This document shows positions 27,070 through 48,335 of a stretch of 64,000 bases of DNA, piece by piece (position 1 is the stretch's first letter; the number at the start of each line of letters is the position of its first letter). Source of the stretch: an uncultured Actinomycetes bacterium (GTDB lineage: Bacteria > Actinomycetota > Thermoleophilia > Gaiellales > JAICJC01); NCBI GenBank assembly GCA_963757605.1, contig CAVWSF010000001.1, positions 537,531 to 601,530 on the forward strand, in the 5' to 3' direction. Made by a program: the position numbers and the translations under genes. Under the pieces are notes generated by a model. It did no database searches. It worked only from the letters and a program-made list of their open reading frames with translations, and had not been told where the DNA came from.

Positions 27070-27852
27070 GTGGATCTCGGGCTCAAGGGATGCGTTGCGA
27101 TCGTCGGCGGGGCATCGTCCGGCATGGGCCGGGCCTGCGCCGTGGCGCTCGCACGGGAGGGCTGCAACGTCGCGGTCTTCGCCCGCCGGCGCGAGCTCCT
27201 CGACGAGGTGGTCGCCGAGATCGAGGCCCTCGGGAGCGGCGCGCAGGCGCTCGCGGTCGCCGGCGACTCGGCGCTTCCCGCCGACCTCGAGGCGCTGGTC
27301 GAGCGGACGCTCGAGCGCTTCGGCCGGCTCGACATCGTCGTCAACAACACCGGCGGCCCGCCCGCGGGGACGTTCGAGGACTTCGACGACGACGCCTGGC
27401 GTCGGGCCTGGGACCTGACGCTCATGTCGACGCTGCGCCTGACCCGGCTCGCCCTTCCGGAGCTCCGAAAGAGCGGCCGCGGCCGGGTCGTCAACATCAC
27501 CTCGTCGGCGGTGAAAGAGCCGAACGAGGGCCTCCTGCTCTCGAACACCTACCGGCCCGGCGTGATCGGCTGGGCCAAGACGCTGTCGCAGGACGAGGGC
27601 CCGCACGGCGTCACCGTGAACTCCATCGCTCCCGGCTTCATCGACACCGAGCGGATGAAGAACCTCTACGCCGGCGGCGCCGACCCCGAGGGCGACCGCA
27701 CCCGTGACGAGGCGCTGATCCCGGCCCGCCGGTTCGGCGACCCGGCCGAGATCGGCGACCTGTGCGCGTTTCTCTGCTCGACCAACGCCGCCTACCTGAA
27801 CGGCATCACCGTCCTCATGGACGGCGGCCTGGCGAAGGGGCTTCTGAGCTGA
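27070..27852 (+). CDS. SDR family oxidoreductase
   Basis: GTG 27070. Blocks VGGASSGMG, NNTGG and the Y...K context (SNTYRPGVIGWAKTL). Confidence 0.8.
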   Translation: MDLGLKGCVAIVGGASSGMGRACAVALAREGCNVAVFARRRELLDEVVAEIEALGSGAQALAVAGDSALPADLEALVERTLERFGRLDIVVNNTGGPPAGTFEDFDDDAWRRAWDLTLMSTLRLTRLALPELRKSGRGRVVNITSSAVKEPNEGLLLSNTYRPGVIGWAKTLSQDEGPHGVTVNSIAPGFIDTERMKNLYAGGADPEGDRTRDEALIPARRFGDPAEIGDLCAFLCSTNAAYLNGITVLMDGGLAKGLLS

Positions 27853-44656: not shown

Positions 44657-45285
44657 GCCAGCGGCTCCATCGCCGCGAACGCGGGCCGGGCGGTGACCGT
44701 GTCGCGCAGGAGCGCCACCTTCGGCCACGGGTCGAACGGGAGCGGCATCCTGTACCAGCGCCACAGGACGGGCGCGAAGGCGCAGTCCGCGATCGTGAAC
44801 GTCCCGAGCACGGTGCCGTTGTCGGCCACAAAGCGCTCCATCAGGTCGAGCTTCGGCCTCACGGCGTCGATCGCCGCGGACAGCGCGGGCCGGTCGGCGT
44901 CCTCGGCCCGGCTTCCACCCTCGTCGATCGGCGTCTGCATGAGCGCGAGCAGTTCGGCGGGGAAGAACGTGCCTCGGAACTGGGTGCTCCAGGCGTCGAG
45001 CGCCCAGTCGACCCGCGCCCGCTCGCGCGGGTCCCGCGGATAGAGGTCGGCCCGTCCCTCACGGTCGGCCAGATAGCGCAGCATCGCGTTGGACTCGCCG
45101 AGCTCGAAGTCGCCGTCGCGCAGGAACGGGATCGTCCCGAACGGGTAGATCTCGACGTACCAGTCCGGCCGCGGCCGCGCGAGCGGCACGTGCTCTCGCT
45201 CGTAGTCGAGGCCCAGCTCGGCGAGCAGGAACCGCACCTTCATCGCGTTGCTCGAGGCGGGGTTCGAGTAGAGGACGAGGCTCAT
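44653..45285 (-). CDS. glutathione S-transferase family protein
   Basis: 210 aa. The N-terminal thioredoxin-like part carries S..A.KVR..L.E and TIPFL, and ESNAMLRYL is present. Confidence 0.8.
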   Translation of the reverse strand: MSLVLYSNPASSNAMKVRFLLAELGLDYEREHVPLARPRPDWYVEIYPFGTIPFLRDGDFELGESNAMLRYLADREGRADLYPRDPRERARVDWALDAWSTQFRGTFFPAELLALMQTPIDEGGSRAEDADRPALSAAIDAVRPKLDLMERFVADNGTVLGTFTIADCAFAPVLWRWYRMPLPFDPWPKVALLRDTVTARPAFAAMEPLA

Positions 45286-45716
45286 CCGGACACCACGTCC
45301 GCGGTGACCCGCAGCGCCATGCTGCCGGAGATCGCCTGGCAGACCGGGCACTCGGCCTCGGCATCGGCGATGAGCGTGCGCACGTCGGCCTCGGGCGCCG
45401 GCGACGCGACGCGCGTGTGGAGCTCGGCCTCGGACAGGTGGTGGCCCTCGCCTCCTCCCCACGCGAGCCGCGTCGACACGCGGGTCTCGATCGGGCCGAG
45501 CGGGATCTCGCGCGAGCGGGCCATGCTCGTGAGCGTCGAGGTGAAGCAGTTGGCGAGCGCGGCCGAGAAGAGCTCCTCGGGGTTCGACTTGCCGCCGGGC
45601 CCGCCCAGCTCCGACTGGGTCGCGGTCGCGACCGAGAGAGCGCCCGAGCCGCCCTCGATCTCGCCGAGGTAGCCCTCCCAGCGGAGCGTCGCGGATGCGG
45701 TGAGGGAGTCAGTCAT
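45282..45716 (-). CDS. OsmC/Ohr family peroxiredoxin-like protein
   Basis: 144 aa with blocks NPEELF..AL..C and CP...A. Confidence 0.8.
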   Translation of the reverse strand: MTDSLTASATLRWEGYLGEIEGGSGALSVATATQSELGGPGGKSNPEELFSAALANCFTSTLTSMARSREIPLGPIETRVSTRLAWGGGEGHHLSEAELHTRVASPAPEADVRTLIADAEAECPVCQAISGSMALRVTADVVSG

Positions 45717-45724
45717 GGCGGCGA

Positions 45725-45933
45725 GTCTAGATGGTTGATTCCGAATCGACGTGATGTCCTGGGCGGCGAGAACCGAGCAGCGCAAGGACGCAGGGAGGCG
45801 CAATATCCGGTGATATTGGGCTGACCGAGGACGCCGCGATGCGACGGTTCGCAGCCGCAGCCCCACCACAGCCCGCCGACCCACCACAGTCGAACGTCCA
45901 GGCGCGCGTGGATTCGGAATCAACCATCTAGAC
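45725..45933. repeat. 209-bp element bounded by perfect 23-bp inverted repeats (GTCTAGATGGTTGATTCCGAATC)
   Basis: 45725-45747 is the exact reverse complement of 45911-45933. Each arm contains TCTAGA and GATTC-N-GAATC sub-palindromes. A central AT-rich palindrome CAATATC-CGGT-GATATTG lies at 45801-45818. Confidence 0.85.
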
Positions 45934-45966
45934 GCTCCCGGGCTTCGCGGATCGCCATCCGTTAGA

Positions 45967-46692
45967 GTGTTCGGCACGATGAGCAACGGCGGAGCTCAGG
46001 TCTTCCAGGCGGTCAACCGTGAGGCGCGGCTGTCGGACAAGGTCACAGCCGCGATCCTCGAGACGATCGCGTCCAACCAGCTGCAGCCCGGCGACCCGCT
46101 CCCGCCCGAGCGCGAGCTGGGGCGCCAGTTCGGGGTCTCGCGCACGGTCATCCGCGAGGCGGTCCGGGCGCTCGCGGCGAAGGGCCTGCTCGAGGTGCGG
46201 AGCGGAAGCGGCGTCCGCATCGTCGCCGTCGACGAGGGCACCGTGCGGGAGTCGATGCGGCACTTCGTGCACGGGAGCCGGCTCGACTACGGCAAGCTCG
46301 ACGAGGTGCGTCACGTGCTCGAGGTGGCGTGCGCCGGGCTCGCCGCCGAGCGCGCCAGCGAGGACGACATCGCCGCGATGGACGCCGCCATCGACGCGTT
46401 CGAGAACGAGTGCAGCGACCTCGAGAAGAGCATCGGCCACGACCTGGCCTTCCACCGCGCCATCGCAACGGCCACCCACAACGAGCTCTTCCTCGTGCTG
46501 CACGACAGCATGGGCGAGATGCTGCTCGAGGTCCGGCGCCGCAACCTGTCGAAGGGCCGCGACGAGCGCCGCCTCGTGGTCGGCATGCACCGCCGGATCC
46601 GCGACGGCATCGCCGCGCACGACCCTGCCACGGCCCGCCAGGCCATGCTCGACCACCTGGGCCACGTCTCGGCGACCTGGGCCGGCCACTAG
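45967..46692 (+). CDS. GntR family regulator, FadR-type C-terminal domain
   Basis: Winged HTH (LPPERELGRQFGVSRTVIREAVRALAAKGLLEVRSGSG) plus a helical FCD-like C-terminus. Start is GTG 45967 or ATG 45979. Confidence 0.85.
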   Translation: MFGTMSNGGAQVFQAVNREARLSDKVTAAILETIASNQLQPGDPLPPERELGRQFGVSRTVIREAVRALAAKGLLEVRSGSGVRIVAVDEGTVRESMRHFVHGSRLDYGKLDEVRHVLEVACAGLAAERASEDDIAAMDAAIDAFENECSDLEKSIGHDLAFHRAIATATHNELFLVLHDSMGEMLLEVRRRNLSKGRDERRLVVGMHRRIRDGIAAHDPATARQAMLDHLGHVSATWAGH

Positions 46693-48335
46693 CCTCCCTC
46701 CGGCTGGTCGGGCTCCTCGTGGGTCATCACCTCGAGGAGCGTGGCGTTGCCGTCCGCGACGCTCGCGATCGCGCGCTCGAGCGCAGGCCGCAGCTCGGCC
46801 GGCTCGCCCGCGTGCTCGGCGTGGCCTCCGAGGGCGCGCGCGATCGCGGCGTAGTCGCCGCCCATGCTGCTCGAGCCGAAGCGCTCGACTGCAGCGGGCA
46901 TCCACTTGCCGTAGCCGCCCATGATCCCGTTGTTCATCACGATCGTGAGGATCGGGATCCGGGCCCGGACGGCGGTCTCGAAGTCCATCCCGATCATCCC
47001 GAACGCGGCGTCGCCCATGATGTTCACGGCCAGCCAGTCCGGCTTCGCGAGCTTCGCGCCGAGCGTCAGCCCGAATCCGGTACCAAGCTGGGTCGACTTG
47101 CCCCAGCCCAGGTAGCCGCGCGGGACGACCGCCTCGTAGAACGGCACGATCTGGTCGCGCGGGTGGCCGGCGTCATGGGTCACGACCGTGCGGGGGCGAT
47201 CCACGACCTGCATCAGCTCGTGCACCAGCCGGTACGGGCTGAGCGGGGCGGCGTCGGAGGTGAGGCCGGGACGCCACCGCTCCGCGAACGCGGCCCGCGA
47301 ATCGGCGAGGCCGGCGGCCGGCGACTGCCGCTCCGGCGCGCCCGAGCCGCGCAGCTCGGCCAGGAGCTGGCCCAGGACGAGGCGTGCGTCGCCCACGCAG
47401 GCGAACGCGACGTCATAGCCGGTCGCGACGTCGCCGCGGTCGTTCACGATCTGGCCGAGCTCGGCCGACGCGGGGAGCGGCGTGATGTAGAGCGAGCGGG
47501 TGAAGCTCGTGCCGACGCCCAGGATCAGGTCGGCCCGGGCGAAGTGCTCGTCGACCATCGCCGGCCGCGTCCGGGCCGCGGTGCCCAGCGAGAGCGGGTG
47601 ATCCTCGGGGAAGGCGCTCTTGCCGTTCAGGGTGGTCGCGACGGGCACGCCGGCCAGCTCGGCGAGCTCCACCAGCTCGGCGGTCGCGCCGGCGTAGAGG
47701 ACGCCCTGGCCGGCGAGGATCACCGGGTGGCGGGCGGCCGCCAGCCGCCGCGCCGCTTCGGCCACGTCCTCTGGGGAGGCCTGCGAGAGGTGCGGCCGCG
47801 GCGAGTGCACGTTCCAGTCGGCGTCGCCGGGGTCGCCGTTCATGACGTCGTTGGCCACCGCCACGAGCGCCGGCCCGGTGCGCGCGCCGCGCACGACGTG
47901 AAGCGCCCGCCGAAACGCCTGCGGCCCGGCCTCGGCGGTGTTGACCGTGGCGGCGAACCGCGTGATCGGCCGGTAGGCCTGCTCGCTTCGGAAGCTCGGC
48001 CCGGCGTCCTGCTCGGGCACGGCGTACTCGGTCGGGACGAGCAGGATCGGGCTGCGGTCGCCGTACGCCTGCGCCACCGCCCCGAACGCCGCCTCGGCGC
48101 CGGGGCCGTACTGCGCCACACAGGGCAAGAGCCGCTCGCCGTTCGTGGCCCGGGCGAAGCCGTCGGCGATGTTCACGGCCACCCGCTCGGTGCGGGTGAT
48201 GATCGGCCGCATCCCAAGGGCGGCGGCGGAGTCGATCAGGCGGTTCTCGGGGAACCCGACGACGTGCTCAGCGCCCTCGCGCTGAAGCAGCTCCGCGATC
48301 TTGTCGGCGACGATCGTCAATTGGTACGCCATCAT
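46689..48335 (-). CDS. thiamine-diphosphate-dependent enzyme (acetolactate-synthase-like family)
   Basis: 548 aa. The N-terminal Pyr domain carries the G.PEN block (VVGFPEN). The C-terminal PP domain carries GDAAFGM...NNG. Confidence 0.8.
   Translation of the reverse strand: MMAYQLTIVADKIAELLQREGAEHVVGFPENRLIDSAAALGMRPIITRTERVAVNIADGFARATNGERLLPCVAQYGPGAEAAFGAVAQAYGDRSPILLVPTEYAVPEQDAGPSFRSEQAYRPITRFAATVNTAEAGPQAFRRALHVVRGARTGPALVAVANDVMNGDPGDADWNVHSPRPHLSQASPEDVAEAARRLAAARHPVILAGQGVLYAGATAELVELAELAGVPVATTLNGKSAFPEDHPLSLGTAARTRPAMVDEHFARADLILGVGTSFTRSLYITPLPASAELGQIVNDRGDVATGYDVAFACVGDARLVLGQLLAELRGSGAPERQSPAAGLADSRAAFAERWRPGLTSDAAPLSPYRLVHELMQVVDRPRTVVTHDAGHPRDQIVPFYEAVVPRGYLGWGKSTQLGTGFGLTLGAKLAKPDWLAVNIMGDAAFGMIGMDFETAVRARIPILTIVMNNGIMGGYGKWMPAAVERFGSSSMGGDYAAIARALGGHAEHAGEPAELRPALERAIASVADGNATLLEVMTHEEPDQPEGG

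Follow-up and report, generated by a model that had tools for sequence, protein, structure and literature searches.

The window, by which we mean the whole 64-kb stretch of DNA analysed here, has a G+C content of about 72% and carries an operon that runs from an OsmC-family gene through a GST gene to a deacetylase-like gene, next to a divergently transcribed gene for a FadR-type GntR/FCD regulator (Table 1). The sequence-only reading had placed a pair of inverted repeat arms between the OsmC operon and the divergent GntR gene, and Pfam supports both gene identities. The OsmC protein is 144 aa long in seven of the eight relatives that have the complete gene and 143 aa in the eighth (L003), and the names of the GntR homologues include Gaiellales bacterium. 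As relatives of the element described below also come from Actinomycetota MAGs, the host is taken to be an uncultured high-GC actinobacterium. For the GntR gene, a start at ATG 45979 is more likely than one at the alternative upstream GTG 45967.

Between the two genes lies a perfect 23-nt inverted repeat, GTCTAGATGGTTGATTCCGAATC, at 45725-45747, with its exact reverse complement at 45911-45933. This repeat had been described from the letters alone and is confirmed by the sequence, as are the 8 nt that separate the left arm from the OsmC start codon (CAT 45714-45716), the 33 nt between the end of the right arm and GTG 45967 (45 nt to ATG 45979), and the presence of TCTAGA and GATTC-N-GAATC in each arm. 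With up to three mismatches allowed, the 23-nt arm matches only twice in the 64-kb window, and two matches were reproduced by none of 100 dinucleotide-preserving shuffles, which bears out the view that a repeat of this kind is not expected by chance. Complementarity of the arms reaches 32 nt at 91%. The DNA that they enclose has the size of a MITE and no transposase, its only ORFs being mechanical ones of 30 and 66 aa. The 66-aa minus-strand ORF (45727-45927) gave no match in a Pfam search, and we reject it as a gene and regard it as a by-product of the palindromic ends. A tblastn search of the window with the IS982 transposase described below returned nothing better than E = 0.99, and neither degenerate termini nor the interior module motif was found elsewhere in the 64-kb window, which thus holds one copy of the element.

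Table 1. Coordinates of the features at the OsmC/GntR locus in the window
Feature	Position	Strand	Basis
OsmC-family gene, first in left operon	45282-45716	-	Pfam OsmC, E = 1.7e-16
Putative OsmC -10 box TAGACT	45724-45729	-	CAT-N7/8-AGTCTA kept in L001-L004, L132, L135-L138
Target CTAG, left copy (putative duplication)	45727-45730	.	Single CTAG in empty sites L004, L132, L135-L138
Left TIR ATGGTTGATTCCGAATC, 17 nt	45731-45747	+	Perfect complement of 45911-45927
Probable MITE proper, 197 bp, without transposase	45731-45927	+	Alignment breaks, L037 match
Conserved structured module, 84 nt	45768-45851	+	Covariation across short copies
Right TIR, 17 nt	45911-45927	-	17/17 perfect, imperfect extension inward
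Target CTAG, right copy (putative duplication)	45928-45931	.	Sequence; CTAG-flanked family copies
Putative GntR -10 box TAGAGT	45963-45968	+	Conserved sequence in relatives
FadR-type GntR/FCD regulator	45979-46692	+	Pfam GntR + FCD; homologues 89-94% identical

The origin of these arms is made clear by the same locus in relatives. The DNA around six GntR homologues (89-94% identity) was taken, giving 11 loci (L001-L004 and L132-L138). Long contigs have in common the gene order deacetylase-like, GST, OsmC, divergent GntR and convergent TPP enzyme, and four short contigs (L135-L138) cover the GntR-adjacent genes only. By gene calls, the OsmC-GntR spacer is about 50-65 bp in all 11 relatives compared with 250-262 bp in the window, and the relatives' spacers are therefore too short for the element. 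When L001-L004 are aligned to the window by BLAST (84-90% nucleotide identity), the alignments break at window positions 45729-45732 and restart at 45927-45957 depending on the relative; in the closest relative, L004, the break is at 45732 and the restart at 45927. The empty site of L004 reads CAT-GTCGGCGA-GTCTAGA-TCCTTCCGGGCTTTGCGG, and the corresponding layout in the window is CAT-GGCGGCGA-GTCTAGA-[TGGTTGATTCC...GGAATCAACCA]-TCTAGA-CGCTCCCGGGCTTCGCGG. Among the nine empty sites that were read directly, there is one CTAG in six (L004, L132 and L135-L138) and none in three (L001-L003). Removal of 45731-45931, which is the element plus one CTAG, makes the window colinear with the empty sites. 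The empty orthologous sites and the alignment breaks at the element ends together indicate that the element was inserted in the lineage of the window and is flanked by a duplication, so that both the target-site duplication and the empty site in relatives expected of a MITE are found here. The sequence-only reading had proposed the orthologous locus as the place to look, since a single copy in the genome, with the same sequence at the same place in relatives, would speak against a MITE-like insertion; instead, the relatives are empty and related copies lie at unrelated loci.

This comparison also provides a rationale for the apparent length of the repeat. We read the 23-nt repeat as a composite of a 17-nt TIR, the 4-nt duplicated CTAG and 2 host bases. 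The target CTAG is itself a palindrome and lies within GTCTAGAC, so that its direct duplication mimics an extension of the inverted repeat, which accounts for the apparent 23 nt and for the ambiguous boundaries. In the same way, the outermost GT/AC belong to the host and owe their pairing solely to the palindromic nature of the pre-insertion site GTCTAGAC. The doubt raised earlier about where the element ends was thus a real one, and the palindromic CTAG target accounts for it. The element is 197 bp long, or 199 bp if only TA was duplicated, and the sense direction of its parent IS corresponds to the plus strand, towards GntR.

Copies of the element were sought by their termini in genomes and metagenomes. 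Scanning a genome collection (one genome per species) with the pattern TGGTTGATTCCGAATCNACG turned up three chance matches and, in two Actinomycetota MAGs, four real copies. From CTAG to CTAG, the latter span 318, 161, 161 and 65 bp, and each is bounded as CTAG-ATGGTTG...CAACCAT-CTAG. One of the MAGs, EKS_GB_MAG_00007, has three copies, two of which are 96.9% identical and at different loci; several loci per genome are thus seen for the family, alongside the one copy in the window's 64 kb. The three other matches, in Bacteroides (L006), in Desulfovibrio (L010) and at L011, are lone chance matches without a partner arm and were rejected as family copies. In JGI metagenomes, a scan with CTAGATGGTTGATTCCNAAT matched at least 120 contigs, and pairing of the termini gave at least 63 pairs, a few of them spurious or overlapping. 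Among the matches listed, the pairs split into about 25 of 974-1044 bp and others of 46-457 bp; transposase-less derivatives of 46-457 bp number more than 30 among these matches, with size clusters at about 160-164 and 194-200 bp. One short copy, at positions 8-204 of L037, matches the full 197 bp of the window element with 88.3% identity and has an unrelated locus around it, which indicates that the short form itself has moved. In L015, a window-type MITE directly adjoins a full IS, and a single CTAG is common to both. The OsmC/GntR locus does not occur among the metagenome loci listed, and the terminus pattern gave 0 matches in viral contigs. From their shared ends and target, we take these sequences to be a widespread soil Actinomycetota family of IS982-type ISs and MITEs, all targeting CTAG.

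The sequence-only reading had also offered the possibility that the arms of the window element serve the neighbouring GntR repressor as a pair of operators, set on both divergent promoters so as to allow DNA looping. Each arm does contain a near-palindrome, TTGATTCNGAATC(A/G)A, and the arms do flank a divergent pair of regulator and operon. However, both arms are missing in 11 of 11 relatives that have the same GntR protein (89-94% identical) and the same operon, and the arm sequence is that of transposon ends in the matched contigs (at least 120), where it forms the ends of more than 60 transposon copies whose surroundings are unrelated and show no tie to GntR genes. FadR/PdhR-type operators have the consensus TGGT-N3-ACCA; the arms contain no contiguous sequence of this type, and GATTCNGAATC alone is not enriched, as at least two matches occur in 24 of 100 shuffles. 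We therefore consider operator arms extremely improbable and drop the proposal in favour of an inserted transposon.

The identity of the parent transposon is provided by the longer members of the family. Among the matches listed, about 25 elements of approximately 1 kb from soil metagenomes have the 17-nt ends and a single long ORF for an IS982-family transposase; together with the L015 tandem, they supply the termini common to a MITE and an autonomous element. At 974-1044 bp, with stop-free stretches of 272-332 codons, they have the size and single-ORF organisation of IS982. The encoded protein scores 151 bits on the NCBIfam model NF033520 'IS982 family transposase' (cut-off 130) and matches Pfam DDE_Tnp_1. 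In tblastn comparisons, annotated IS982 transposases encoded on plasmids of Kitasatospora, Streptomyces and Rhodococcus share 52-61% identity with it, and a match without annotation, on the Corynebacterium efficiens plasmid pCE3, shares about 58%. In all three plasmid ISs examined (Kitasatospora, Rhodococcus and C. efficiens), the ends read CTAG-ATGA...TCC, for example CTAG-ATGATTGATTCCTTGAA, and CTAG is present on both sides. Two other families were considered and rejected as the source of the transposase: for IS5 the protein reaches 30 bits against a cut-off of 110, and IS630/Tc1-mariner is set aside, as IS630 is absent among the profile matches. The label 'mariner-type', offered when only the TA within the TCTAGA ends had been seen, finds no support given an IS982-family partner transposase.

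The ends of the family differ from those of most IS982 members. According to a review of the family, IS982 elements are about 1 kb long, their inverted repeats begin with AC in 57 of 69 members, and their direct repeats measure 0-9 bp (PMC7335449). The 5'-AC start typical of IS982 is absent from the ends of the present family, which begin with AT or GA and read (CTAG)ATGGTTG...; the ends of cultured actinobacterial IS982 elements read (CTAG)ATGA.... As 12 of the 69 IS982 members lack the AC start, ends without AC mark a subgroup and leave membership of the family open to it. Judged by transposase and organisation, the parent clade is IS982, with non-AC ends.

The target preference of this clade is equally distinctive. 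MITEs and ISs of the IS630/Tc1-mariner and IS5 groups use CTAG targets, with duplication of TA (IS630-like) or CTAG (IS5-like). The window family resembles IS630/IS5 MITEs in its CTAG target, but its partner transposase belongs to IS982 instead. Nearly all paired termini among the matches listed are flanked as CTAG...CTAG, and exactly CTAG stands beside 32 of the 47 termini that are free of the search-pattern constraint. The outer base of the flank varies at 7 of the 47 termini and the inner base at 1, a lean towards TA that is not significant. The duplication may therefore comprise CTAG (4 bp) or the central TA (2 bp), with flank statistics that are suggestive of TA. No other tetranucleotide of its composition is as rare in the window as CTAG, with 19 sites compared with 162 expected. 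The actinobacterial IS982 clade appears strictly CTAG-specific. For ISCef2 and ISCef3 of C. efficiens, the direct repeat is given as 0 in the IS982 review (PMC7335449); set against the CTAG flanks, this value suggests a CTAG-specific target with a duplication that would be hidden by palindromy.

Taken together, these data make the element very probably an IS982-derived MITE that inserted at a CTAG in the divergent OsmC/GntR promoter region. The MITE-like insertion put forward from the sequence alone is thereby borne out, with the empty sites, the copies at unrelated loci and an IS982 parent behind it. In the mechanism that we propose, a DDE transposase of about 300 aa supplied by a full-length copy elsewhere would mobilise the MITE; it would recognise the 17-nt ends ATGGTTGATTCCGAATC, integrate at CTAG, and duplicate either CTAG or its central TA. 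A different history would have a full-length IS insert at this site and lose its interior in situ, in which case the element would never have moved in its short form. MITEs originate by internal deletion, and the termini and CTAG flanks of the window element are identical to those of the ISs of about 1 kb. Against this history, L037, at another locus, is 88% identical and shares the internal junction across the full 197 bp, the window element has interior modules in common with L015, L007, L098 and L119, and the short copies fall into discrete size classes (about 161-164 and 194-200 bp among the matches listed). These three observations indicate that the deleted form pre-existed and spread, and deletion at the locus itself is accordingly very improbable.

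Inside the MITE is a conserved module built from an outer stem, the two invariant strands AGGACGCAGG and CCGAGGAC, and an inner hairpin whose sequence varies, and it includes a GAGGA that resembles a ribosome-binding site and an ATG at 45839. Conserved blocks are visible in an alignment of seven short copies. The stem of the inner hairpin varies in sequence from copy to copy with its pairing always kept, and CCGAGGAC is usually followed by ATG. For the 68-nt core (45776-45843), of which there are 14 distinct versions, RNAalifold gives 19 pairs; double changes that compensate each other occur in 12 of these. In a model-fitted alignment of related sequences, a condition under which both of the following values have to be read, pairing holds in 87.9% of cells compared with 68% in shuffles, and the covariation score is 0.314 compared with 0.095 and was reached by 0 of 500 shuffles; slid controls score 0.04-0.09. 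A covariance model matches the module in about 17 short copies. Its match at 27385-27457 of the window (E = 0.068) was rejected as coding-like sequence without termini. In viral contigs the module pattern gave seven matches, of which one is real: L147, a 'viral' contig, has the same module between different terminal repeats. The other six are chance matches in coding DNA without the hairpin and were rejected. As a separate observation, the module strands and the compensatory stem changes persist in at least 14 diverged short copies, including copies that have no ATG.

The full-length ISs suggest where this module came from. In their leader, the ribosome-binding site and the GTG are paired with a strand further upstream, and this pairing encloses an inner hairpin, GGCGTTGC/GCAACGYC. 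The start codon of the IS (AGGAGG, GTG) is 92-106 nt from the left end compared with about 107 nt for the ATG of the MITE, and the blocks around the ribosome-binding site and start codon of MITE and IS match at 17 of 21 positions. We read the interior as the parent's translation-initiation (fold-back) region, apparently joined to the parent's right end. The sampled full-length IS leaders gave no match to the module covariance model at E < 1, and none of the sampled full-length ISs carries the AGGACGCAGG/CCGAGGAC motifs; as the model finds no full-length IS, the proposed derivation rests on the architecture, the position and the 17/21 match. Fold-back leaders that sequester the ribosome-binding site are a feature of IS10/IS50-type transposase mRNAs. 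The full-length ISs appear to have an analogous fold-back, and the MITE seems to keep its architecture. The MITE differs from an IS10/IS50 leader in having no transposase to regulate, yet its pairing is still kept by compensatory changes. A function for the module that is under selection in non-autonomous copies, either as a cis mobilisation signal or as a leader-mimic RNA that affects expression of the transposase, would make it more than a decaying relic of the leader; the persistence of its strands and stem changes in the diverged short copies, in those without the ATG and in L147, and the lack of these motifs in the sampled full-length ISs point that way, but on balance such a function is unlikely. 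In 10 of 13 copies, an open frame connects the internal ATG with the TAG in the right-hand CTAG; these 10 represent only three independent length classes in GC-rich DNA, and this short ORF is therefore probably a chance one.

Such strong structure could also point to a gene for a structured ncRNA, or to a cis-regulatory leader of OsmC or GntR in which the stem formed by the arms is functional. The plus strand folds at -131 kcal/mol (z = -6.0), and the 84-nt internal module shows strong covariation. Nevertheless, terminal inverted repeats by themselves produce a long stem, transposon copies are the only places where the covarying module recurs, and the element is missing from all orthologous loci. 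No Rfam match falls in 45725-45933 (Rfam 15; scan of 45000-46700, E <= 10). The element also lies upstream of both conserved, putative -10 boxes discussed below and is therefore probably in neither leader, which argues against the long RNA stem that had been imagined for either one. An RNA of this kind is thus exceedingly unlikely.

Our comparison of filled and empty sites also bears on the promoters between which the MITE inserted. In Mycobacterium tuberculosis, promoters have a TANNNT -10 element centred 7-12 bp upstream of transcription starts with no -35 consensus, and leaderless mRNAs are common (PMC3898074). Both TAGACT, on the OsmC side, and TAGAGT, on the GntR side, fit this actinobacterial TANNNT. 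The putative OsmC -10 box is 7 nt from the ATG in the window and 7-8 nt from it in the empty sites. On the other side, CCGTTAGAGTG is kept in L001, L002, L004, L132 and L135-L138, and L003 has CGGTTAGAGTG with TAGAGT intact; TAGAGT stands 10 nt before the conserved GntR start, which is ATG 45979 in the window and GTG in relatives. A sigma-70 promoter and terminator scan of 45500-46200 returned no sites, a result that comes from an E. coli-type model and is uninformative for actinobacterial promoters. The spacing suggests that the OsmC mRNA is leaderless. It is true, as the sequence-only reading observed, that there is no room for a Shine-Dalgarno sequence upstream of OsmC; the insertion is not the cause, because the empty sites have the same TAGACT-N7/8-ATG and the missing Shine-Dalgarno sequence is therefore ancestral.

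The exact point of insertion determines what the MITE would have changed. Comparison with relatives places it at the CTAG of GTCTAGAC, within the roughly 62 bp that separated the divergent OsmC-GST operon from GntR. We infer that this target CTAG shares bases with the upstream edge of TAGACT and that the duplication recreated the box. With the OsmC -10 box rebuilt by the duplication, neither core promoter and neither start codon would have been lost. The putative GntR -10 box, 31 nt beyond the right end of the insertion, belongs to the native DNA and is thus untouched. The two -10 boxes would now be 233 bp apart compared with about 32-38 bp before, and the native DNA upstream of the OsmC -10 box would have been shifted 201 bp away. 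At the OsmC promoter, transposon-end sequence would stand where native DNA used to lie upstream, and any operator located rightward of the CTAG would be lost to the promoter with that DNA; the native palindrome CGGATCGCCATCCG (45948-45961) may be a candidate operator of this kind. Insertion of IS982 members into promoters is known to change expression (PMC7335449). Regulation of the OsmC operon would be expected to be altered or uncoupled.

Among known systems, the closest are the actinobacterial IS982 elements, namely ISCef2/ISCef3 and those of Rhodococcus, Streptomyces and Kitasatospora plasmids, which have the same organisation of about 1 kb and a DDE protein of about 300 aa as the parent and share with the parent family the terminal architecture CTAG-ATG(A/G)(G/T)T...TCC. 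In contrast to them, the window element has no transposase and is one fifth the length. Typical IS982 ends follow AC(N)6T(N)5TT, from which the ends of the window family differ. A published example is the IS982-derived MITE of Cardinium, which is about 240 bp long, comes from ISCca4 and has inverted repeats matching an IS982-family parent in the same genome (PMC9769881). It is the same kind of transposase-less IS982 derivative as the window element, although its sequence is unrelated and its host is a Bacteroidota endosymbiont rather than a free-living, high-GC member of the Actinomycetota.

The window element leaves existing knowledge of how MITEs work unchanged, and the aspects possibly worth more work are only the structured module and the CTAG specificity of the IS982 clade. 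At the level of the locus, it provides a natural example, in filled and empty form, of a MITE between the back-to-back promoters of a regulator and operon pair. The locus may thus serve as a natural test of how far a leaderless actinobacterial promoter needs its upstream DNA, and of GntR control of the OsmC operon.

The interior of the window element, an IS982-derived MITE lying between the OsmC operon and the GntR gene, holds a structured module (Table), which consists of an outer stem, two invariant strands, AGGACGCAGG and CCGAGGAC, and an inner hairpin with strong covariation. Besides the window copy, the module is carried by short elements on the contigs L005, L007, L009, L015, L016, L017, L020, L037, L060, L063, L067, L098, L103, L119, L126 and the "viral" contig L147, where it is enclosed by other terminal repeats, GTGGTTCCGTCCGTAAGTTC. 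A covariance model of the module gave no matches among the sampled full-length ISs. An ATG within the module, preceded by GAGGA, opens a short ORF that ends at the TAG of the right-hand CTAG. In 10 of 13 copies this frame stays open as far as the terminal TAG, and its length classes (57, 93 and 156 nt) are each divisible by three. The open frame is probably a chance outcome of GC-rich DNA.

Table. Features of the window element, its promoter region and minimal relatives
Feature	Location	Strand	Remarks
Structured module	window 45768-45851	+	84 nt; interior of element
Short ORF	window 45839-45931	+	30 aa, C-terminal ...DSESTI; from module ATG to TAG of right-hand CTAG
TAGACT, 7-8 nt, OsmC ATG	window 45714-45729	-	conserved in relatives' sites
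Palindrome CGGAT-CGCC-ATCCG	window 45948-45961		immediately upstream of GntR -10 box
Minimal elements	L025 103-150; L072 11203-11250; L098 2928-2973		46-48 bp

The family extends down to minimal elements on three contigs, which are barely more than two terminal repeats back to back and retain CTAG or TTAG flanks. On the contig L015, a tandem pair (7-1145) joins a full-length IS982-type element (7-986) to a window-type MITE of 151 bp with degenerate ends (991-1141), the two having one CTAG in common. IS982-family copies on plasmids of cultured actinobacteria (L139-L141; Kitasatospora, C. efficiens pCE3 and Rhodococcus) are likewise flanked by CTAG on both sides. For ISCef2 and ISCef3, a direct repeat of 0 is given in a published table (PMC7335449), which may reflect a palindromic duplication counted into the inverted repeat. 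Base composition predicts 162 CTAG sites for the whole window; the 19 present are the lowest count among the 24 tetranucleotides containing each base once. Two of these 19 sites adjoin the ends of the element, and another, at 46689, is where the stop codons of GntR and of the convergent gene for the TPP enzyme overlap.

Around the insertion, TAGACT, together with the 7-8 nt separating it from the OsmC start, is conserved at the same place in the relatives' empty sites that were read directly (L001-L004, L132 and L135-L138), and this conserved sequence suggests that the OsmC-GST operon mRNA is leaderless. On the other side, gene callers place the GntR homologue start (241-243 aa) at a GTG overlapping a conserved TAGAGT box (window 45967-45981). 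Moving the start 12 nt downstream, to 45979 (ATG in the window, GTG in relatives), gives 237 aa and agrees better with the inferred promoter than the called GTG does. In the relative L003 (4973-5819), GntR was called at 301 aa and the downstream TPP-enzyme gene as a 233-aa fragment versus about 548 aa, and these calls point to local decay of the contig, or to faulty assembly or a frameshift in it. The palindrome beside the GntR promoter is a candidate operator; L001 has a different palindrome, GGAAC-GA-GTTCC, in the equivalent position, and in the window the insertion has left the candidate operator solely on the GntR side.
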